A stretch of 17,802 nucleotides of DNA, from the IMG/VR virus record IMGVR_UViG_2645727843_000004. One strand, written 5' to 3'. Source of the stretch: a virus. Taxonomy: Duplodnaviria > Heunggongvirae > Uroviricota > Caudoviricetes. A program made the position numbers and the translations under genes. How positions within the stretch are numbered: the first letter of the stretch is position 1; each line of letters starts with the position of its first letter. A model generated the notes under the pieces. That model was not told the origin of the DNA. It made no database searches and saw only the letters and a list, made by a program, of their open reading frames with translations. Below, in pieces: positions 1,922-16,697 of the stretch.

Positions 1922-2635
1922 TCAATAATCAAGCCCTTGCCTGGATACATATCTGTCTGGCGGGAAGCCATAATAGCGGTGAAATACAGAAATAAAGTAG
2001 GACCAGCTTGAATAACCGCATTTTTCTGCTACAGCCTGTCCATATCCATGCCGGGAACATAACATATTGACAGCAACACGCATCCGCTCTTCCAGCAACA
2101 AGCGACTGAACATGTGCCCTTCATTTTTCAGTTTTATCTTTAACAAACTCTCACTCATATGCAGGCGTAACGCAATCGCACCAAGCGTCCAGCTTGCTGA
2201 TATATCTGTCTGAATTATCGCCCTGACTTTGGCACTTATACTGGATAAACATCCACTTAAAAATAATAATATCCGTTCATCTGATTCAAACAGCGACAGG
2301 CATGCCATCATAAGAAACATATCCGTGGTATCTCCGGAAAATCTCTGGCTGGTAATTAAAGCCTCAGCCAACGCAGGGTTGTTGGGTTCCAGTGACAGAT
2401 AAAGCGGAACGTCAGTCAGATGAGTTCTTGTCAGCTTATGCTGAATTTCCAGATATTGACTTACTATGGAATGGTTTATATCGAAAATTTTAACTTTGCC
2501 ATAATGCATAAGGAAAAGCGCCCTGATGCATTTGGTGGCCAGAACGACTGAGCCGGGCTTAAGTGACAACGTATCCTTTTCAAGAAAAATATTAATTGGG
2601 GAGCAAACCATGATAACTGAACAGACAACAACCAT
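1922..2635 (-). CDS. AraC/XylS-family transcriptional regulator (prophage cargo)
   Basis: 237-aa ORF with a C-terminal AraC-type HTH (…LLEERMRVAVNMLCSRHGYGQAVAEKCGYSSWSYFISVFHRYYGFPPDRY). Sits between Q and the tRNA cluster with its own upstream terminator. Confidence 0.8.
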   Translation of the reverse strand: MVVVCSVIMVCSPINIFLEKDTLSLKPGSVVLATKCIRALFLMHYGKVKIFDINHSIVSQYLEIQHKLTRTHLTDVPLYLSLEPNNPALAEALITSQRFSGDTTDMFLMMACLSLFESDERILLFLSGCLSSISAKVRAIIQTDISASWTLGAIALRLHMSESLLKIKLKNEGHMFSRLLLEERMRVAVNMLCSRHGYGQAVAEKCGYSSWSYFISVFHRYYGFPPDRYVSRQGLDY

Positions 2636-3211: not shown

Positions 3212-3754
3212 TTATCGAAATGAATCGTGCATAGGTACATAAAGCATGTGTTCAGCCACGGCTAACCAACCTGCAATACGTTTCTCACATGTGCTGAAAC
3301 ACCATTCCGGGTGAGTACGATTTAAACATTCTGCCATTTTTCTCTTACTCATTCCCCGTCCTTCGTACCTTTGCCGGAGAATATTGATTAGCCCGGGATA
3401 TTCCCCAAGCACCTCACTGATAACGCGATCAATAATCAACGCCTCTGTGTCTGTACAATGTGACAACCAGCTCTTCTGCTTCCCTCTGGTCATATCCCGA
3501 AAAAATGCCTCAAGTTCCGGTTTTTCCAGCCCGGATTTCTTCATGCTGCGTAAAACCTCATTAACTGCTGTTTTCGTCAGCCTTTTCGAAACCAGTAACC
3601 GGTTAAACATATTTCCGGATTTACCCCCACCGATATACGACCACCGCCCCCACATCCGTAATTTCCCCTGGATCCAGACTGCTTCCAGCGTGTTCAGGCG
3701 TAAATGTTCGCCGCTTTTGCCTGTAATTTCCGGATATATCATATTTACGCTCAC
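3212..3754 (-). CDS. Putative late-gene antiterminator Q-like protein
   Basis: 180-aa ORF directly after rusA (GTGA overlap with the rusA stop; alternative ATG at 3742) and directly before a terminator hairpin and the tRNA cluster. Assignment is mainly positional; sequence family not verified. Confidence 0.5.
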   Translation of the reverse strand: MSVNMIYPEITGKSGEHLRLNTLEAVWIQGKLRMWGRWSYIGGGKSGNMFNRLLVSKRLTKTAVNEVLRSMKKSGLEKPELEAFFRDMTRGKQKSWLSHCTDTEALIIDRVISEVLGEYPGLINILRQRYEGRGMSKRKMAECLNRTHPEWCFSTCEKRIAGWLAVAEHMLYVPMHDSFR

Positions 3755-5446: not shown

Positions 5447-5518
5447 CGGTTTTCTCTGCTGGCGCAGCAGGTGCCAGTTGTTCAAGCTGGCGTGCGGCAA
5501 TATTGTCTCTGATTTCTG

Positions 5519-5546
5519 TTGTCGTCAACAGGCAACGTGCTATCAT
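5519..5546 (+). promoter_or_regulatory. Candidate sigma70 promoter for parDE
   Basis: TTGTCG (5519-5524), 16-nt spacer, TATCAT (5541-5546), then SD GAGG and ATG at 5582. Motif match only. Confidence 0.3.
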
Positions 5547-5581
5547 CGAATGGTGTTCTATCCTACTCCGTGAGGTTTACC

Positions 5582-5839
5582 ATGCGTACAACCCAACAAT
5601 TCAGCATTACATTAACTAACGAAATGGCTGACATGGTGCGCGCCCGTGTGGCTTCCGGTGCCTATGCTTCAGAAAGCGAGGTCATTCGTGAAGGGCTTCG
5701 CGCACTGAATGAGCGCGATAAAGCAATCGAAGCGTGGTTAACGCATTCAGCCGCCCCCTCTCTTGATTCTATCCGCGAAAACCCAAACAACGGACGCTCC
5801 ATTTCACAGGTTCGCGCCGCGATTCGATCCGGGAAGTAA
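5582..5839 (+). CDS. parD: ParD-type ribbon-helix-helix antitoxin
   Basis: 85 aa: MRTTQQFSITLTNEMADMVRARVASGAYASESEVIREGLRALNERDKAIEAWL... (ParD/COG3609-like). SD GAGG upstream; followed 5 nt later by the toxin gene. Confidence 0.8.
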   Translation: MRTTQQFSITLTNEMADMVRARVASGAYASESEVIREGLRALNERDKAIEAWLTHSAAPSLDSIRENPNNGRSISQVRAAIRSGK

Positions 5840-5844
5840 TCTGC

Positions 5845-6144
5845 ATGACATATGAAGTCATCATTACTCCTGAGGCCGAACAACAAATAATCAACCTGCA
5901 CAGGTATATAGCGGAGAAAGCAGGGAACGTCATTGCTGACAATTATGCCAATGCGCTTCTTGATTATCTTGATGGGTTTTCTACATTCCCGCATCGGGGC
6001 AATAAACGCGATGATATTCGCCAGGGGATGCGGGTAACTCATTTCCGCCACAGAACGATTATTGCTTTTGCCGTTGATAGCAGAAAAGTCTTTATTGTCG
6101 GTATCTATCATGGTGGGCAAAGTTATGAAACCGATTTCTTATAA
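5845..6144 (+). CDS. parE: ParE/RelE-superfamily toxin
   Basis: 99 aa: MTYEVIITPEAEQQIINLHRYIAEKAGNVIADNYANALLDYLDGFSTFPHRGNKRDDIRQGMRVTHFRHRTIIAFAVDSRKVFIVGIYHGG; classic antitoxin-toxin order and size. Confidence 0.8.
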   Translation: MTYEVIITPEAEQQIINLHRYIAEKAGNVIADNYANALLDYLDGFSTFPHRGNKRDDIRQGMRVTHFRHRTIIAFAVDSRKVFIVGIYHGGQSYETDFL

Positions 6145-6228
6145 ACTTTTACCCACATCATTCCGGTGTTAGAATTAACCGTCCGCCCCCCTCTCTTACT
6201 GGCGGATTCGTAGGCTATATAAATCAAA

Positions 6229-6262
6229 GATCCCGGCTCATGTTTATGTCGGGATCTTTTTT
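6229..6262. terminator. Bidirectional terminator hairpin between parDE and the convergent minus-strand operon
   Basis: Stem GATCCCG/CGGGATC (6229-6235 / 6250-6256) followed by T6 on the plus strand; on the minus strand the same hairpin is followed by UUUGAUUUAUAU. Confidence 0.5.
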
Positions 6263-6269
6263 CGGCGAT

Positions 6270-6353
6270 TTATCCCCAGCGGCAAATCGAATACACCACC
6301 AGCGCCACCGCCATCGCAATTCCTACCGTTGTGAATGCTTCAGGCCAGGTCAT
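6270..6353 (-). CDS. Candidate 27-aa hydrophobic peptide, translationally coupled to the upstream gene
   Basis: ATGA overlap with the stop of the 6350-6694 gene; GGAGG nine nt upstream. Translation [27 protein letters not shown] (one predicted TM helix). Below the ORF-track length cutoff. Confidence 0.3.
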
Positions 6354-6694
6354 CGTAAAATATCCTCCACGCTTATCAGTCCGTTCCGCTCCAGATAACT
6401 CATCGCCTTATCCGGTAATTTGCAGTCTGGCTTCGCTTTCCTCAGTTGCCAGGTTAACTGCTTTACCAGCATGGTTAACTCATCGACCAGACGCTGATAT
6501 CCCACTGGTTTGTATTCATGCAATTTACCGGCTGGCTCTGCTGCCAGCGATACCAGTGCGATTTCCAGAACAGCAATATCCATCTTATATGTGCGGATGA
6601 TGTCATGGTCGATTGTGCCCGGTATGCACAGTCTCTGTGCTTCAATAGTCTCCTCTGCGTGAGCTATTAACTGCTCTCTGGTAAAAGTCGTCAT
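6350..6694 (-). CDS. Hypothetical protein (114 aa)
   Basis: ORF in the minus-strand operon; ATGA overlap with the upstream HNH gene remnant. Confidence 0.55.
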
Positions 6695-6859
6695 GCCGTA
6701 GCCCCTTCTTGATATTTTTCAAACCAGAACACAACTGGGTCAGATTTCATTTCAACCAATCCCATACGAACCAGCGCTTTGCCTTTCCCGGACGCAAGGA
6801 ATTCACGACGACCATCACTGATAATTCGCCGATAATCTTCCAGACTACTGCAATGCTTG

Positions 6860-8054
<1,195 letters not shown>

Positions 8055-8256
8055 CTTGTGCAGATTGCATGGGTGGCATGCCGGAACCATATTGGATATA
8101 TCGTCACGTTCCTGGTGAAGCATATTTCCATCAAAACGAATGACCGGTTTTACATGGTCTGCATGCCACTTTTCGCCAAGTTCGCAGCCGCAATAAGCAC
8201 AGCGACCGCCGAACTTCATGCGCAGCTCTGCACGTTGTTTTTTCGTCAGTGCCATA

Positions 8257-8475
8257 TCAGCTTTCCTTATACGGATTAATTTTATTGTGCAGTGTGCTGA
8301 ACGACGCCCACACCACGTCGTTATACAATTCAATAACTGGCTCAATTATTTTCACGATAAACCAGACCAGTAATAGCGGGGGTATCGGTATCATCAACAC
8401 GATAAATATAATGAGAAACAAAAATTCTGTCGCTCTACTTTTTCTCGGATATTCTTTTCTGAATAATGTAGTCAT
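8257..8475 (-). CDS. Small putative membrane protein (72 aa)
   Basis: ORF with a strongly hydrophobic core (FLFLIIFIVLMIPIPPLLLVWFIVKII) in an AT-rich segment, co-oriented with the operon. No clear SD. Confidence 0.35.
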   Translation of the reverse strand: MTTLFRKEYPRKSRATEFLFLIIFIVLMIPIPPLLLVWFIVKIIEPVIELYNDVVWASFSTLHNKINPYKES

Positions 8476-8570
8476 TTCTTACCGCCCTTTCAGGCGGCCT
8501 CCTGATGTTTTGAGGGTGCAGAAATCCCTCCGGTTAAGGATTAAATTTTTATTTACAGCACTAAATTTAT

Positions 8571-12673: not shown

Positions 12674-13099
12674 TTAATGCACAGCCAGAGTGTTTCCTGC
12701 CGGGCCACCACGATTCATCTGATCGAACAGAACGATCGCTGATGCAACGAAATCATCAATATCTTTCACCAGCCGTTCCTTCGTCTCTACCAACTCCCGA
12801 AAATAAGCGGAACTGTGGCTGCGCATTCGGGCCACCAGCAGAGGCGGCATTGCTTTTTCGATAGCTGGTAACAGAGCCTGCATTTTTTCAACGGCATCAG
12901 GAGTATCTTTCTTTACCCAGCGGAAAATTTTCTGGGTATTGCGAGCCAGGGCTTCCGGATGGCTGTCGTCATACAGTTCTGGGAACGTCATACCCAACTC
13001 AAAATAAGCCTGGGTTATTCCAGCTGCTGGAACTTTTTCGCCATCAGGACGCGCCCAGGCATTCATCGCCATGCGGATGTGTTCATGCTTGATTTTCAT
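12674..13099 (-). CDS. YdaT-like (CII-position) early regulator
   Basis: 141 aa, MKIKHEHIRMAMNAWARPDGEKVPAAGITQAYFELGMTFPELYDD...; ATGA overlap with the Cro-like gene. Arrangement matches Rac ydaS-ydaT. Confidence 0.6.
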   Translation of the reverse strand: MKIKHEHIRMAMNAWARPDGEKVPAAGITQAYFELGMTFPELYDDSHPEALARNTQKIFRWVKKDTPDAVEKMQALLPAIEKAMPPLLVARMRSHSSAYFRELVETKERLVKDIDDFVASAIVLFDQMNRGGPAGNTLAVH

Positions 13100-13359
13100 G
13101 AATCAACTCCCAGCGCGGGTTGTGTGTTAGCCTGATAGTCAACAGGTATGCCATCGGTTGGGTTGGGGTAAGTACTGCTATCAATCTCGTGCGGGGTCAC
13201 TACCCACCCTGTTGCTTCACACCAGCGTAAAACTTTCCCCCCCGTAAGTTTCGCCCGTCCAGTAATAACATGGCTTACCATCCCTTGGGTTACCCCAACA
13301 ATTTCAGCAAAATCTTTCTGGGTTATACGGGAATGATGCAAATATTCTCCAAGATTCAT
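13096..13359 (-). CDS. Cro-like HTH protein (YdaS/DicC-type)
   Basis: 87 aa with HTH ITQKDFAEIVGVTQGMVSHVITG; SD GAGGTG; divergent from the repressor gene across an operator-bearing spacer. Confidence 0.75.
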   Translation of the reverse strand: MNLGEYLHHSRITQKDFAEIVGVTQGMVSHVITGRAKLTGGKVLRWCEATGWVVTPHEIDSSTYPNPTDGIPVDYQANTQPALGVDS

Positions 13360-13389: not shown

Positions 13390-13432
13390 TTAATAGCATT
13401 GTTATTTTTGAAAGTAAATAGCATCGCTATTT
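13390..13432. promoter_or_regulatory. Right operator region: two 15-bp palindromic operators overlapping a PR-like promoter
   Basis: AATAGCATTGTTATT (13392-13406) and AATAGCATCGCTATT (13418-13432, perfect palindrome AATAGC-N3-GCTATT). On the minus strand -35 TTTACT (13418-13413), 17-nt spacer, -10 TATTAA (13395-13390). Confidence 0.55.
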
Positions 13433-13466
13433 CAAAGAGATTAATAATCTTATTAGAATTGAAGGT

Positions 13467-13967
13467 ATGAAAAGAAAACCCCTGTCAGAGATCGACCTGC
13501 AAGCCGCCCAGAGACTGAAAGAAATCTGGACGACGAAAAAAACTCAACTTGGGTTAACCCAAGAGCGTGCGGCAGAAATTCTGGGTTTTTCGACACAAGG
13601 GGCAGTAAGCCATTATCTAAATGGTCAGACACCTTTAAATCTAGAGGCTGTTATCAAGTTCGCTGGGTTGCTACAAGTTCCGCCTGAGTCAATTAGACCA
13701 GATATGGCAGACTTGTTACGAATTGTAAGGATGTACCCCCAAGAACTGCAGCAGGATAATGTTGTCGCTTTACCCGCAGAGATGGAGCAATCGGAAAACG
13801 AACTTCCGTTTAATATAGAACCTATAGAGCGAGATTTGATCCAGACGTTCAGGGCTTTCCCAAAAGAAGACAAAGAGAAAATGCTTAAGGAAATGAAGGA
13901 GAAAAAAGAATCAATTGAAGAAACCGTTGCGCGGTGGCTAGAGGCGCAAAAAGGTCGTCGCGCCTAA
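13467..13967 (+). CDS. Prophage repressor, RacR/DicA-type (XRE HTH, no S24 peptidase domain)
   Basis: 166 aa with HTH LTQERAAEILGFSTQGAVSHYLNGQ and an acidic/lysine-rich C-terminus; divergent from the Cro-like gene; same strand as the downstream dicB-type operon. Confidence 0.8.
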   Translation: MKRKPLSEIDLQAAQRLKEIWTTKKTQLGLTQERAAEILGFSTQGAVSHYLNGQTPLNLEAVIKFAGLLQVPPESIRPDMADLLRIVRMYPQELQQDNVVALPAEMEQSENELPFNIEPIERDLIQTFRAFPKEDKEKMLKEMKEKKESIEETVARWLEAQKGRRA

Positions 13968-13984
13968 TCTGAGGAGGTTAGAAC

Positions 13985-14176
13985 ATGAGTACAGTCCTTT
14001 CCCCGATAATTTCAGAATTTGAAACAATCGAACAAGAAAACAGCTATAACGAATGGTTACGCACCAAAGTGGCAGCAAGCCTCGCAGACCCCCGTCCTGC
14101 AATTCCGCATGACGAAGTAATGGCTGAAATGGAAAACCTTATTGCGCAAATAGCTTCGACGAACAGGAGTGAGTAA
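13985..14176 (+). CDS. Putative antitoxin partnered with the downstream ParE/RelE toxin
   Basis: 63 aa, strong SD GAGGAGG; TAATG stop/start overlap with the toxin gene; 17 nt downstream of the repressor stop. Family not assigned. Confidence 0.65.
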   Translation: MSTVLSPIISEFETIEQENSYNEWLRTKVAASLADPRPAIPHDEVMAEMENLIAQIASTNRSE

Positions 14177-14466
14177 TGCTGCCCATTTTATGGCTACCTT
14201 CTGCGCGTGATGATTTGCGTCAGATCGTGGCCTATATTGCCAAGGAAAACCCTCCCGCTGCACGTAGACTAAAAATACGCATTGAAACATCAGTTTTGTC
14301 ACTTTCTGAACACCCTTACCTGTATCCACCAAGCGAAAGAGCTCTAGGCCTTCGTGAGATAGTGACCCATCCTAACTACATAATACTTTACCGAGTAACA
14401 GCATCTAACATCGAGATCGTAAATGTAGTTCACTCACGAAGGCAGTATCCAAACAAAAGCTGTTAA
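14176..14466 (+). CDS. RelE/ParE-superfamily toxin
   Basis: 96 aa: MLPILWLPSARDDLRQIVAYIAKENPPAARRLKIRIETSVLSLSEHPYLYPPSERALGLREIVTHPNYIILYRVTASNIEIVNVVHSRRQYP (ParE/RelE fold signature). Confidence 0.8.
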   Translation: MLPILWLPSARDDLRQIVAYIAKENPPAARRLKIRIETSVLSLSEHPYLYPPSERALGLREIVTHPNYIILYRVTASNIEIVNVVHSRRQYPNKSC

Positions 14467-14481
14467 TCATTCCTACCAACA

Positions 14482-14504
14482 ACCACCTTCGGGTGGTTTT
14501 TTTT
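14482..14504 (+). terminator. Intrinsic terminator ending the repressor-TA operon
   Basis: ACCACC-TTCG-GGTGGT hairpin (14482-14497) followed by T8. Confidence 0.7.
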
Positions 14505-14522
14505 CTTACCTCCAAAAAAAAC

Positions 14523-14564
14523 AATAGCATTACTATTTACACAATAAAATAGCAGTGCTATTGT
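14523..14564 (+). promoter_or_regulatory. Left operator region with PL-like promoter for the dicB-type operon
   Basis: AATAGCATTACTATT (14523-14537) and AATAGCAGTGCTATT (14548-14562); -35 TTTACA (14536-14541), 17-nt spacer, -10 TATTGT (14559-14564). Confidence 0.55.
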
Positions 14565-14740
14565 TTATTCATCACCCACCCACCCCACAGAATGCAGGGC
14601 AATACCTCGAGTTACCCGGCAGTGGCCAGGGGTTAAGTAGCCAGCCCGAGGCGTATGAACATGACGGCGGGAACACTTTGTATAACAGCGCAGCAGGTTT
14701 TTAGTTCCGCGACCCGGCGTTAAGGGTAAATGAGGTCAAC

Positions 14741-14893
14741 ATGGATATGCTCAATCTTGGCAACAACGAATCTCTGGTATGCGGAGTATTCCCCAACCTG
14801 GACGGCACGTTCACCGCGATGACGTATACCAGAAGCAAAACGTTTAAAACGGAAGCTGGCGCGCGTCGCTGGTTAGCAAGAAACTCTGACTGA
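14741..14893 (+). CDS. ydfA: YdfA-like small protein (50 aa), first gene of the dicB-type operon
   Basis: SD GAGG six nt upstream; MDMLNLGNNESLVCGVFPNLDGTFTAMTYTRSKTFKTEAGARRWLARNSD; TGATG coupling to the next gene. Below the ORF-track cutoff. Confidence 0.55.
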   Translation: MDMLNLGNNESLVCGVFPNLDGTFTAMTYTRSKTFKTEAGARRWLARNSD

Positions 14894-15543
14894 TGAGATT
14901 GACGATGGAATTTAAAGATTTACCTCCTTCAATCCAGGAGATTGCAGCACACACACTTCGTCATCGTCTGAACGAACTTGAATTGGAATCGGTAACGAAA
15001 AAAGACACTGATAATATGGCTCGTAATGTGCGCGATGCGTTTACCGGATTGTATTTCTGTGCGTCTATAAATAAACACGACTCAGAGAGTATGGCAAATA
15101 AAATTGCAGAAACGACAGCGCAAAACATCAATACGAAACCAACGGAAGAAGAAATTGATCAGTTTGCTCATGATGCTGGTTTAAAAAACAAGAAAGAAAA
15201 ATCGCCATATGCGGGGAACATGTTTGTTTATGACAATCTCATTAGAATTCGTGGCGAAATTCCGGCGGAATACCTGGCAAGAGTCCATCAGGCATTGCTT
15301 AAAAATTTGGAAACAGAATTATTTGATGGCAACACTAACGGTTTCTTCATGGTATCAGGCCTTGAGAAAGACTGGGATGCAGAAAAACGCTGGAATGTTG
15401 CTACATGGTTATTCAGTAACAGAGCCGCTGCACTGGAAGCTTCGGCATGTATTTGCGGCCTGTTCTTAACAGACCACAAATATAATCTGGATGTGTACAG
15501 TTATATTTACGCTGAACACGGTCCACTCTGGATTGACTGGTAA
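14893..15543 (+). CDS. Hypothetical 216-aa protein; variable cargo in the dicB-type operon
   Basis: Translationally coupled to the ydfA-like gene; no motif I recognise; occupies the slot where K-12 Qin has the short ydfB and ydfC. Confidence 0.6.
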   Translation: MRLTMEFKDLPPSIQEIAAHTLRHRLNELELESVTKKDTDNMARNVRDAFTGLYFCASINKHDSESMANKIAETTAQNINTKPTEEEIDQFAHDAGLKNKKEKSPYAGNMFVYDNLIRIRGEIPAEYLARVHQALLKNLETELFDGNTNGFFMVSGLEKDWDAEKRWNVATWLFSNRAAALEASACICGLFLTDHKYNLDVYSYIYAEHGPLWIDW

Positions 15544-16092: not shown

Positions 16093-16150
16093 TTCTGGTG
16101 ACATTTGGCGGTATCAGTTTTACTCCGTGACTGCTCTGCCGCCCTTTTTT
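16093..16150 (+). ncRNA. dicF: DicF-like small RNA (ftsZ-targeting sRNA of the dicB operon)
   Basis: TTCTGGTGACATTTGGCGGTATCAGTTTTACTCCGTGACTGCTCTGCCGCCCTTTTTT closely matches my recollection of E. coli DicF, including the GGCGG...CCGCC terminator stem and T-tract; it sits just upstream of dicB, as in Qin. Confidence 0.7.
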
Positions 16151-16320: not shown

Positions 16321-16509
16321 ATGGAAAAGTTATCATGTAATGCCAGCACGTCTGAACTTCGTTTCGAAATTGGCGTTATCACTGGAGACAAAACATTTAT
16401 TGAAGACGCCATTAAGCAGAGAAAACTCGAGCAGGACCTGTTAAATGAAGTATGCATTCCTTCAATGCTGGCTCGTCTGGACCTGCTGCAAAAAGGATAT
16501 AAACAATGA
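16321..16509 (+). CDS. dicB: Cell-division inhibitor DicB
   Basis: 62 aa MEKLSCNASTSELRFEIGVITGDKTFIEDAIKQRKLEQDLLNEVCIPSMLARLDLLQKGYKQ; aligns by eye with K-12 DicB (FEIGV, EDAI, SMLARL). SD GAGG upstream. Confidence 0.85.
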   Translation: MEKLSCNASTSELRFEIGVITGDKTFIEDAIKQRKLEQDLLNEVCIPSMLARLDLLQKGYKQ

Positions 16510-16697
16510 ATACAACATTTGCACTCGTTCTGACAGTTTATCTTGTTTCCGGCGAATCTCTTGAGCTGGTGACTGGCTTATACGGTTCAATGAAAGAATG
16601 CATGGCTGCAGCAGCAGAACAAAAAATTCCCGGTAACTGTTATCCGGTAGATAAAACTACTCACACTAATAATAACGAAATACCGGCAGGACTTTAA
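16506..16697 (+). CDS. ydfD: YdfD-like small protein with a hydrophobic N-terminus
   Basis: 63 aa MNTTFALVLTVYLVSGESLELV...EQKIPGNCYPVDK...EIPAGL; ATGA overlap with dicB. Confidence 0.75.
   Translation: MNTTFALVLTVYLVSGESLELVTGLYGSMKECMAAAAEQKIPGNCYPVDKTTHTNNNEIPAGL

Follow-up and report, generated by a model that had tools for sequence, protein, structure and literature searches.

The region lies within a window of 17,802 nt (the whole stretch of DNA that was analysed) and contains three consecutive plus-strand genes encoding a repressor, an antitoxin, and a toxin (Table 1). A Cro-like gene and a YdaT-family gene diverge from the repressor gene on one side. On the other side, a terminator is followed by the predicted left operators (OL) and by a ydfA-like gene, the first gene of the PL-side operon. 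This ydfA-like gene marks the far edge of the slot that holds the toxin-antitoxin (TA) pair. Eight other E. coli loci have this same order (YdaT, cro-like gene, repressor, antitoxin, toxin, terminator, OL, and ydfA to dicB), which is also found in phage Evi. A similar cro-like gene occupied the same position in all eight of these E. coli loci. Elsewhere in the window, a DDE transposase/insertion sequence (IS) is present at 7006 to 7986, in a stretch that a closely related prophage lacks. The prophage therefore appears damaged.

Table 1. Predicted features of the repressor-TA region, with positions in the window
Feature	Position	Strand	Evidence or remark
YdaT-family gene, 141 aa, CII analogue	12674-13099	-	Pfam YdaT_toxin, 2.6e-09
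Candidate YdaT-binding inverted repeat TTGATTTTCATGAATCAA	13089-13106		At the cro-stop/ydaT-start junction
Cro-like (YdaS-analogue) HTH gene, 87 aa	13096-13359	-	Pfam HTH_3, 4.9e-06; divergent from repressor
OR, predicted operators AATAGCATTGTTATT (13392-13406) and AATAGCATCGCTATT (13417-13431)	13392-13457		Motif scan
PRM-like promoter, TTCAAA, 17 nt, TAGAAT	13431-13459	+	Promoter scan
Immunity repressor, 166 aa	13467-13967	+	Pfam HTH_3, 1.8e-09
PaaA-type antitoxin, 63 aa	13985-14176	+	Pfam PaaA2, 2.9e-22
ParE-type toxin, 96 aa	14176-14466	+	Pfam ParE_toxin, 3.8e-18, above cutoff
Intrinsic terminator	14481-14506	+	Predicted end of the repressor-TA operon
OL, predicted operators AATAGCATTACTATT (14523-14537) and AATAGCAGTGCTATT (14548-14562)	14523-14564	+	
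ydfA-like DUF1391 gene	14741-14893	+	Pfam DUF1391, 1.6e-28; first gene of PL-side operon

The three genes are closely spaced. The initial annotation placed the antitoxin start 17 nt after the repressor stop, and all of its coordinates were correct on rechecking. The repressor stop codon TAA is at 13965 to 13967 and the antitoxin ATG is at 13985, so that the gap, read from the sequence, is exactly 17 nt. A Shine-Dalgarno sequence, GAGGAGG (13970 to 13976), lies inside it, and a gap of 17 to 28 nt is conserved in every E. coli locus examined. We also confirmed the antitoxin/toxin overlap, TAATG, at 14174 to 14178; AGGAG is found 6 nt 5' of the toxin ATG. The terminator that had been claimed downstream of the toxin is an intrinsic one, with a 7-bp GC-rich stem and a 4-nt loop (14481 to 14498) followed by eight T residues. 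Its predicted fold of -10.4 kcal/mol (z = -3.2) was equalled in 1 of 200 shuffles. Between 13467 and 14176, a sequence scan found neither a promoter-like site on the plus strand nor a convincing terminator; the sole terminator-like match, at 13792 to 13808, consists of a weak stem of 5 bp and then TTTAATAT. The 17-nt gap, the lack of an internal plus-strand promoter-like site, and the position of the terminator fit a single operon, and we infer that the TA genes are cotranscribed with the repressor at this locus. A minus-strand open reading frame (ORF) of 91 aa at 14057 to 14332 overlies the TA genes. No family model supported it, and the pattern of substitutions agrees with the plus-strand frames, so we rejected it.

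The repressor has two parts. Residues 1 to 82 are a lambda-CI-like N-terminal helix-turn-helix domain, and a phmmer search against the PDB matched structures of the lambda CI N-terminal domain (NTD) over residues 2 to 82 (E = 1.6e-09). Residues from about 103 to 166 are a PaaR/DicA-type C-terminal domain (CTD). Over these 64 residues, identity is 58% to the O157:H7 PaaR1-type CTD and 37 to 42% to the PaaR2-type CTD, and the NCBIfam DicA C-terminal model matched at 9e-07, which is under the family cutoff. The CTD is common to this repressor, the PaaR1 and PaaR2 types, and DicA, while the NTD is variable. Pfam found no Peptidase_S24 domain in the repressor at E ≤ 0.01. Judged by homology, the protein is a hybrid of a CI NTD and a PaaR CTD that has no RecA-cleavable domain. 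Because it has no LexA-like self-cleaving CTD, induction would not be able to use RecA-stimulated autocleavage. Its assignment to the PaaR type rests on the CTD and on synteny, because the DNA-binding NTD is of another, lambda-CI-like type. The DNA-binding domain is unrelated in sequence to that of PaaR2, and therefore PRM activation and the order in which the operators fill may differ. We found this repressor type in 72 of 5,426 complete E. coli genomes, and the full repressor and TA block was present in all 72.

The antitoxin belongs to the PaaA2 family, with a Pfam score of 78.8 bits against a cutoff of 27 and no second domain. It also exceeded the cutoff of NCBIfam NF050103 (1.6e-26); this model is named "RelB family," yet it corresponds to the PaaA2 fold. 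The protein matched the PaaA2 structure (PDB 3zbe) at 1.7e-22, with 63% identity to PaaA2, and it is 86% identical to a second O157:H7 paralogue. Over its C-terminal third, the protein is of the PaaA1 type. There is no cross-neutralisation between PaaA1 and PaaA2 (PMC4803016), so the present pair is probably insulated from ParE2. Neither Pfam nor NCBIfam found an RHH/ParD DNA-binding domain in the 63 residues.

The toxin is 65% identical over its full length to O157:H7 ParE2, a protein of solved structure, and matched that structure (PDB 5cw7) at 2.2e-35 over residues 1 to 93. Chance cannot account for the family matches of either TA protein. Identity to the toxin of the O157:H7 PaaR1-type locus is 87 to 89%, and 50 columns are invariant among eight homologues. 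The dN/dS ratio was 0.04 to 0.17 for the antitoxin and 0.04 to 0.15 for the toxin, the latter where synonymous changes are unsaturated. Because these low ratios hold at dS up to >1, both TA proteins have been maintained by strong purifying selection. The product of 14176 to 14466 is probably toxic and would be neutralised by the product of 13985 to 14176, as their homology suggests. ParE2 co-localises with the nucleoid and induces the SOS response (PMC8630535). Gyrase inhibition has not been demonstrated for O157:H7 ParE2, which did not bind GyrA59 (PMC10886550).

The operon was described as bracketed by two operator clusters, and pairs of a 15-bp palindrome, AATAGCAnnGCTATT, do flank it on both sides. 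With up to two mismatches, the palindrome occurs in the 17.8-kb window only at 13392, 13417, 14523, and 14548. This gives 8 strand-matches against 0.46 expected, and 8 was reached in none of 200 shuffles. A degenerate third copy lies in OR at about 13443 to 13457, and the OR copies are spaced 25 to 26 bp apart. In three other loci of this repressor type, the motif is again present at both of these places, and the compared loci with other repressor types lack it. Thus, the operator motif co-varies with the repressor type across loci. Homology and operator geometry suggest that the 166-aa repressor binds these sites. The pair is located downstream of the repressor and between OR and OL, which bears out the proposed rexAB-like position and matches the homologous CP-933P locus.

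Promoters were assigned by position and analogy, because the promoter scan was not enriched over shuffles (3 sites against 3.1). A PL-like site at 14536 to 14564 (TTTACA, 17 nt, TG-TATTGT) overlaps OL and reads into the ydfA-dicF-dicB side. The PR-like promoter is on the minus strand, with a -35 element TTTACT at 13418 to 13413 and a -10 element TATTAA at 13395 to 13390; these hexamers are weak, fall beneath the threshold of the scan, and were read directly from the sequence. The PR-like and PL sites share one operator/hexamer geometry. The -10 element of the PRM-like promoter ends 7 nt before the repressor ATG, so the repressor mRNA is probably leaderless, as are those of lambda cI and paaR2. 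For paaR2, a leaderless mRNA was shown by 5' RACE (PMC8630535).

The YdaT homologue of CP-933P works as a CII analogue (PMC8630535, PMC9986795). The repeat TTGATTTTCATGAATCAA is the sole YdaT-motif match with no mismatch in the window, and OM of CP-933P has this motif in the corresponding position (PMC9986795). With up to two mismatches, the whole window contained two matches against 1.46 expected, which is not above chance, and the argument therefore lies in the exact match and the junction position. This repeat is likely the site of a PRE-like establishment promoter directed toward the repressor-TA operon.

By gene content and order, the locus is of the published paaR-paaA-parE type (Hallez 2010; Jurenas 2021). 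It appears to be an ordinary new member, because earlier work described and tested the same arrangement in E. coli O157:H7. A passage of PMC4803016 that cites Hallez 2010 reports that a promoter upstream of paaR transcribes the homologous genes as one operon. PaaR2 acts as a CI analogue: it binds OR and OL and represses PR, PRM, and PL (PMC8630535). According to PMC9986795, the TA genes of that homologue "replace the rexA and rexB genes." The paaR2-paaA2-parE2 module stabilises plasmids via post-segregational killing, PaaA2 is degraded by ClpXP/ClpAP, and single-cell work on CP-933P detected ParE2 activity in neither transcriptional state (all PMC8630535). Therefore, of the two roles that the initial annotation proposed, stabilisation is the one with published support in a homologue. 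Very probably, the region serves a lambdoid E. coli prophage as its immunity module, with the PaaA-ParE pair as the distal part of the repressor operon.

We propose the following mechanism. The repressor would bind the OR and OL palindromes by its lambda-CI-like NTD and oligomerise by its PaaR/DicA-type CTD. Bound repressor would shut off the Cro/YdaT and PL operons and sustain its own leaderless, PRM-like transcript. This transcript would run on over the 17-nt gap, through the antitoxin gene and then the toxin gene, whose translation is coupled to it, and would stop at the terminator that precedes OL. The pair would lack a regulator of its own and would be made whenever the repressor is made, and the YdaT-activated PRE-like promoter at the cro/ydaT junction would probably drive it as well; these steps have been shown for paaR2-paaA2-parE2. 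The antitoxin, which has no DNA-binding domain, would wrap around ParE and neutralise it, and would probably be protease-labile, as shown for PaaA2. If the module were lost or silenced, the antitoxin would decay, and free ParE would cause DNA damage and SOS induction. The freed toxin would kill or arrest the cell, and its likely target is a topoisomerase. The module would thus be addictive and would stabilise the prophage, specifically its immunity region.

The placement of PaaA-ParE inside the OR-OL bracket may serve to guard the immunity module itself, a suggestion that we regard as speculative and rather unlikely. In this scenario, recombination or superinfection would replace or silence the repressor allele, the labile antitoxin would be lost, and ParE would kill the recombinant or infected cell. 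One cassette would then combine "immunity-allele addiction" with abortive infection against heteroimmune lambdoid phages, an idea that is similarly doubtful. The TA linkage in 72 of 72 genomes, the co-variation of operator and repressor, and the free-standing cassettes of other Proteobacteria are compatible with such guarding, and none of them tests it.

A different emphasis would make the pair mainly a defence system, acting by abortive infection or exclusion from within the repressor operon as do RexAB and BstA. We judge this unlikely as the main role. The slot is the same as that of lambda rexAB and Salmonella BTP1 bstA, and accessory genes of this kind have a recognised hotspot between cI and N, an interval that is highly transcribed in lysogens (PMC8585504). 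The cassette is also optional, being missing between dicA and ydfA in K-12 Qin, yet frequent (841 of 5,426 E. coli genomes), and the antitoxin of the homologue is protease-labile (PMC8630535). In such a system, a heteroimmune or virulent phage might stop host/prophage transcription or trigger antitoxin degradation, and free ParE would abort the infection; we give this course of events an equally low likelihood. However, PADLOC-DB matched none of the three proteins, so they cannot be assigned to a known defence family. In addition, the literature examined reports no phage-defence phenotype, and the published phenotype of the homologue is addiction by post-segregational killing. Defence and addiction are compatible roles, and both could hold.

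We think it quite improbable that the TA pair is transcribed independently of the repressor, from a promoter of its own inside or after the repressor gene, with its position being incidental. Lambda has an internal promoter for rexB, which counts for such independence. In other Proteobacteria, PaaA-ParE pairs resemble free-standing cassettes of two genes, with long gaps upstream and neighbours that are unrelated; this survey of non-enterobacterial loci used crude ORF calls, which yield spurious ORFs in GC-rich genomes, and supports, qualitatively, only that no conserved regulator precedes the pair. Evidently the pair can work without a paaR gene, and these cassettes suggest that it was captured ready-made. 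The PaaA-ParE complex also partly represses the paaR promoter in O157:H7 (PMC4803016). Against independent transcription stand the 17-nt gap filled by a Shine-Dalgarno sequence, its conservation at 17 to 28 nt, the result of the promoter and terminator scan, and the operon structure shown for the homologue (PMC8630535, PMC4803016).

It is very improbable that a defective prophage carries the cassette as a decaying remnant, with an inactive or attenuated toxin and no function for the pair. The IS-bearing, damaged-looking prophage would suit such decay, as would the cryptic state of CP-933P, host of the model homologue, and the fact that ParE2 activity was unseen at steady state (PMC8630535). 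However, both TA ORFs are full length, the invariant toxin columns and the low dN/dS ratios of both genes indicate constraint, homologues are toxic and addictive (PMC8630535, PMC4803016), and the sequenced phage Evi has a PaaR2-type cassette. The RelE half of the original RelE/ParE label did not stand, and a RelE-type, ribosome-dependent mRNA interferase is scarcely credible: RefSeq names ("RelE/ParE family toxin" and "RelB family antitoxin") and NCBIfam TIGR02385 RelE_StbE (27.3 bits, just beneath the 27.9 cutoff) point that way, but the toxin resembles ParE2, a nucleoid-co-localising SOS inducer, throughout its length, its best Pfam match is ParE_toxin, and the antitoxin is in the PaaA2 family and is not an RHH-type RelB.

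Megablast gave no match to the region in the phage collection; only a protein search found the PaaR2-type cassette, in phage Evi. About 15% of complete E. coli genomes have the cassette, including the O104:H4 and O145:H28 outbreak lineages. Because it is this common, annotation as PaaA/ParE, in place of "RelB" or "hypothetical," would be useful. The locus carries little weight as a discovery, since three-component paaR-paaA-parE modules have been published and partly dissected, as has their placement in the rexAB slot. It has modest value as a natural variant in which a lambda-CI-homologous DNA-binding domain is joined to a PaaR CTD. This join supports, by sequence, the equivalence of PaaR and CI, which Jurenas et al. 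argued by function only. The locus would also be a clean heteroimmune partner, with other operators and a nearly identical TA pair, for studying how repressor specificity and TA expression are coupled.

In canonical ParD-ParE modules (RK2, Vibrio, and Caulobacter), the toxin has the ParE fold, and the antitoxin gene lies upstream and is translationally coupled, as here. Unlike ParD, the present antitoxin has no RHH domain, and autoregulation would therefore be delegated to the separate repressor. DicA of K-12 Qin is also a short repressor in the CI position, with an HTH NTD and a related CTD, although overall identity is 22%. Qin has the same downstream genes, ydfA, dicF, and dicB, but its annotation places ydfA directly after dicA with no TA pair between them. 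The DNA of the window and Qin can be aligned only from just upstream of ydfA onward, so the alignment is uninformative about the boundaries of a TA insertion, and the empty slot is read from the annotation.

The lambda cI-rexA-rexB region has a homologous repressor NTD and accessory genes that are also downstream of the repressor, inside OR-OL, and, as predicted for the present pair, transcribed with it in the lysogen. It further matches the locus in its divergent cro, its CII-type activator, and the topology of PL. The cargo differs, being a membrane-depolarising abortive-infection pair in lambda and here a type II TA pair for whose homologues addiction has been shown. Pfam, NCBIfam, and PADLOC gave only PaaA2 and ParE matches and no RexA/RexB homology, so with respect to the cargo, position alone is held in common with lambda.

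The closest relatives are the two O157:H7 systems. We represented paaR2-paaA2-parE2 of the cryptic prophage CP-933P (Hallez 2010, Sterckx 2016, Jurenas 2021) by locus L006 and PDB entries 5cw7, 3zbe, and 7nkv. It shares the architecture and the place in the immunity region, with OR and OL bracketing the operon in both. Its repressor likewise lacks an S24 domain and has the common CTD. In both systems, the -10 element is directly before the ATG, consistent with leaderless mRNA, and the YdaT site TTGATTN6AATCAA is at the ydaS/ydaT junction. However, the toxin and antitoxin are only 65% and 63% identical to the present pair, and the repressor NTD and the operators, there GTTTAGTAA repeats, are unrelated.

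The paaR1-paaA1-parE1 system of CP-933M (Hallez et al. 2010) was represented by locus L002 of O157:H7 strain SS52. We identified L002 as the paaR1 system by elimination, because, of the two copies in O157:H7, the other one is identical to ParE2. L002 has the same three-gene order, the 17- to 28-nt gap, and a 1-nt stop/start overlap. It also has the same flanks, with YdaT and a cro-like gene on one side and the terminator, OL/PL, ydfA, and dicB on the other, and the DNA of the replication-side flank is 96.6% identical. By contrast, its repressor NTD is shorter and Xre-type, whereas the one here is unrelated, 100 residues long, and lambda-CI-like. The N-terminal part of cro also differs, and the operators are AATAGCAnnGCTATT here and AAAAACTGT...ACAGTTTTT in L002. 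Because the DNA-binding domain, the cro N terminus, and the operators all differ, the two loci would have different immunity specificities. Read from homology, this specificity, a new DNA-binding domain with matching operators, is all that is new here. In our assessment, the locus is with high probability a heteroimmune member of the three-component paaR-paaA-parE family.

The repressor gene and the toxin-antitoxin (TA) pair behind it belong to the known paaR-paaA-parE family, as a heteroimmune member. Its antitoxin matches Pfam PaaA2 (E = 2.9e-22) and the solved structure of PaaA2 (3zbe, E = 2e-22), and its toxin matches Pfam ParE_toxin (E = 3.8e-18) and the structure of O157:H7 ParE2 (5cw7, E = 2e-35). 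Both proteins are in PHROGs as phage families of "unknown function". The repressor has an HTH_3 domain, and a Pfam search found no S24 peptidase domain in it. The lambda CI N-terminal domain, with its basic N-terminal arm, aligns to residues 2 to 82 (E = 1.6e-09), and the C-terminal part weakly matches the DicA C terminus. Divergent from the repressor are an 87-aa HTH gene at the position of cro and a gene of the YdaT family (Pfam). The PADLOC defense-system models gave no match for the repressor, antitoxin, or toxin.

The three ORFs lie exactly where the initial annotation had placed them. The repressor stop is TAA at 13965-13967. As proposed, the antitoxin ATG at 13985 follows after a 17-nt spacer, which holds GAGGAGG, and the toxin gene overlaps the antitoxin gene, in GAGTAATGC at 14171-14179. 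One base is common to the antitoxin stop and the toxin start, and AGGAG lies upstream. The terminator described after the toxin was also found (14481-14506), with a GC-rich 7-bp stem, a 4-nt loop, and eight T; its fold is -10.4 kcal/mol (z = -3.2 against shuffles).

Features called in the window
Feature	Position	Strand	Basis or remark
Repressor ORF, 166 aa	13467-13967	+	ORF calling
Antitoxin ORF, 63 aa	13985-14176	+	ORF calling
Toxin ORF, 96 aa	14176-14466	+	ORF calling
PRM-like promoter, TTCAAA-17-TAGAAT	-10 ends 7 nt 5' of repressor ATG	+	Promoter scan
PL-like promoter, TTTACA-17-TG-TATTGT	14536-14564		Promoter scan; overlaps both OL operators
PR candidate, TTTACT and TATTAA	13418-13413 and 13395-13390	-	Overlaps both OR operators
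216-aa ORF after ydfA	14893-15543	+	phrog_2151, unknown function, E = 5e-147
DicF sRNA	16093-16144	+	Rfam, 77 bits
dicB-like and DUF1482/ydfD-like ORFs	~16321-16697	+	After DicF
sRNA STnc100, three tRNA genes, AraC-family regulator gene	1377-1893, 1922-2635	-	STnc100, 138.7 bits

The operator clusters thought to bracket the operon are real. With up to 2 mismatches allowed, the 17.8 kb contain the palindrome AATAGCAnnGCTATT only at 13392, 13417, 14523, and 14548; the eight strand-matches compare with 0.46 expected, and 0 of 200 shuffles reached eight. A third, degenerate copy lies at about 13443-13457, likewise at a spacing of 25 to 26 bp. The strong operator at 13417-13431 abuts the PRM-like -35, and the degenerate copy covers the PRM-like -10. 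The position of this -10 implies that the repressor mRNA would be leaderless here, as for cI and paaR2. The minus-strand PR is plausible, because its hexamers are offset from the OR operators by 2 nt and 4 nt, as are those of the PL-like site from the OL operators. However, the promoter scan found no more sites overall than in shuffled sequence, and its calls are weak. Therefore, PRM, PL, and PR are assignments by analogy. A motif search also found a perfect TTGATTN6AATCAA (TTGATTTTCATGAATCAA) at 13089-13106, right where the cro stop meets the ydaT start. In the cryptic prophage CP-933P, the high-affinity YdaT site OM has the same sequence and position, and it goes with an alternative start of the repressor-TA operon that YdaT activates (PMC9986795). 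This correspondence with OM/PRE implies a CII-like establishment promoter at the junction that would drive the TA pair too.

Several E. coli strains, O145:H28 among them, have chromosomal prophages with 99.6% identity to this region. In strain 2013C-4830, the matching prophage adjoins yccA and carries an integrase, an exonuclease, dicB, a Q-type antiterminator, and a holin. The TA pair is present in 841 of 5,426 complete E. coli genomes. We chose eight loci spanning the identity range, and all eight had the order YdaT (-), cro-like (-), repressor, antitoxin, toxin, DUF1391/ydfA ... dicB, exonuclease. The K-12 prophage Qin keeps this order, but its dicA-ydfA interval lacks the pair; therefore, the pair is an optional insert of the repressor-ydfA slot. 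The immunity type of the window occurs in 72 genomes, and at least 80% of the whole repressor, TA, and OL block also occurs in exactly 72, so this repressor type is never without the TA pair in the collection searched. By sequence, locus L006 (ATCC 25922) is identified as the true paaR2-paaA2-parE2, because its toxin is identical to the aligned ParE2 sequence and the N-terminal domain of its repressor, which starts MQKKE, matches PDB 7nkv. Locus L002 (O157:H7) is presumably the other paralogue of the serotype, paaR1-paaA1-parE1. The window antitoxin is 86% and the toxin 87 to 89% identical to the L002 proteins; identities to PaaA2 and ParE2 are 63% and 65%. In Escherichia phage Evi (LR597642.1, 24917-25192; L010:3001-3276), a ParE2-type toxin gene is unannotated, and the preceding regulator and antitoxin genes are annotated. 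RefSeq often labels PaaA-type antitoxins "hypothetical protein" or "RelB family".

In an alignment of nine repressors, the C termini share a block of about 55 conserved residues (ELLQ.F.AFPEEDQEKML.E.K.KKESME..ARWLAAQK.RRA). Ahead of this block stand at least three N-terminal DNA-binding domains that are unrelated to one another: the PaaR2 type, the PaaR1 type, and, in the window, a longer lambda-CI-like one. The repeat motif differs from type to type and is found between the divergent genes and again past the toxin terminator. All four loci that encode the 166-aa repressor have the window palindrome, and no locus with another repressor has it; the PaaR2-type locus has GTTTAGT repeats, as published. 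Compared with L002, the window DNA is 96.6% identical as far as 13177, a stretch with the replication genes, YdaT, and the 3' end of cro. It has no similarity over the 5' part of cro, OR, and the repressor N-terminal domain, and is 78% identical from 13866 (repressor C-terminal domain) across the TA pair to ydfA. This three-segment pattern is classical for heteroimmune lambdoid phages. The papers searched do not describe the 166-aa variant. In E. coli RM10466 (L007:1681-2532), two repressor genes stand in tandem ahead of the TA pair. An intact PaaR2-type gene (123 aa) comes first, then a PaaR1-type gene that is truncated at its N terminus, frameshifted at its C terminus, and overlaps the antitoxin start. 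The arrangement looks like a relic left when immunity types recombined.

Elsewhere in the window, a conserved leader (…CCCACCCCACAGAA(C/T)GC.GGGCAATAC.TCGAGTTACC…) lies upstream of ydfA at 14566-14740, directly past the divergent OL/PL sequences. It is common to all heteroimmune loci (downstream of OL in L002, L005, and L006), and Rfam returned no family match for it. In the PL transcript, it may serve as a nut-like element or another kind of regulatory RNA. The 216-aa ORF after ydfA has no Pfam domain; L002 matches only its first ~55 codons (14904-15060) and the E. coli locus L001 none of it. It is another variable gene of the PL side. DicF and the dicB-like and ydfD-like ORFs form a Qin-type cell-division-inhibitor cluster, also on the PL side. 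The STnc100, tRNA, and AraC genes, downstream on the minus strand of a Q-antiterminator-like gene (3212-3754), form a late-region tRNA/moron cluster. The early-right stretch 5496-8520, whose counterpart is missing from the otherwise related L001 prophage, includes a 326-aa DDE transposase (DDE_Tnp_1 and DUF772; 7006-7986, minus strand). This is probably an IS insertion and hints that the prophage copy here may be defective.

Both TA ORFs are full length, and 50 positions are invariant among eight toxins. Pairwise dN/dS against homologues is 0.04 to 0.17 for the antitoxin and 0.04 to 0.15 for the toxin, at synonymous divergences that reach saturation; these values indicate strong purifying selection on both genes. 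The low ratios and the full-length genes therefore argue against a decayed toxin.

A wider scan, with each species represented by one genome, yielded 251 ParE relatives. We kept 80 (L011-L090), with toxins 52 to 74% identical to that of the window; they come from Alpha-, Beta-, and Gammaproteobacteria (Acetobacteraceae, Bartonella, Acidithiobacillus, Burkholderiales, Pseudomonas, and others). A PaaA-like protein of ~63 aa is directly upstream of the toxin in 77 of these. By crude ORF calls, the genes farther upstream are heterogeneous and mostly more than 100 nt away, with no conserved regulator among the 80 loci. Therefore, PaaA-ParE seems to be widespread as a free-standing cassette of two genes, and the antitoxin has no DNA-binding domain even there; the E. 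coli prophages apparently captured the cassette downstream of their own repressor. Such stand-alone pairs suggest that this lack is ancestral rather than an outcome of the capture, which bears on an evolutionary question left by Jurenas et al. (PMC8630535).

The pair had been read as part of the prophage repressor operon, and this agrees with published work on close homologues. Hallez et al. (2010), as summarized in PMC4803016 and PMC8630535, described the paaR-paaA-parE loci of O157:H7 as three-component TA systems, each one operon with a promoter upstream of paaR and with full repression by PaaR. There, ClpXP/ClpAP degrade PaaA2, ParE2 induces SOS, and the two paralogous pairs do not cross-neutralize. 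ParE2 did not bind GyrA59 (PMC10886550). The cI-to-N interval is a recognized hotspot where the defense gene bstA also sits (PMC8585504), and a rexAB-like defense role of the TA pair is possible. Most likely, the pair would serve addiction, that is, stabilization of the prophage immunity region. In CP-933P, PaaR2 is a functional CI equivalent, YdaS corresponds to Cro and YdaT to CII, OR and OL/PL are present, and paaR2 is leaderless; the TA genes there take the place of rexA and rexB (PMC9986795). That immunity region is bistable, the locus stabilizes a mini-F plasmid, and the TA pair is proposed to guard the region against recombination (Jurenas et al. 2021; PMC8630535).
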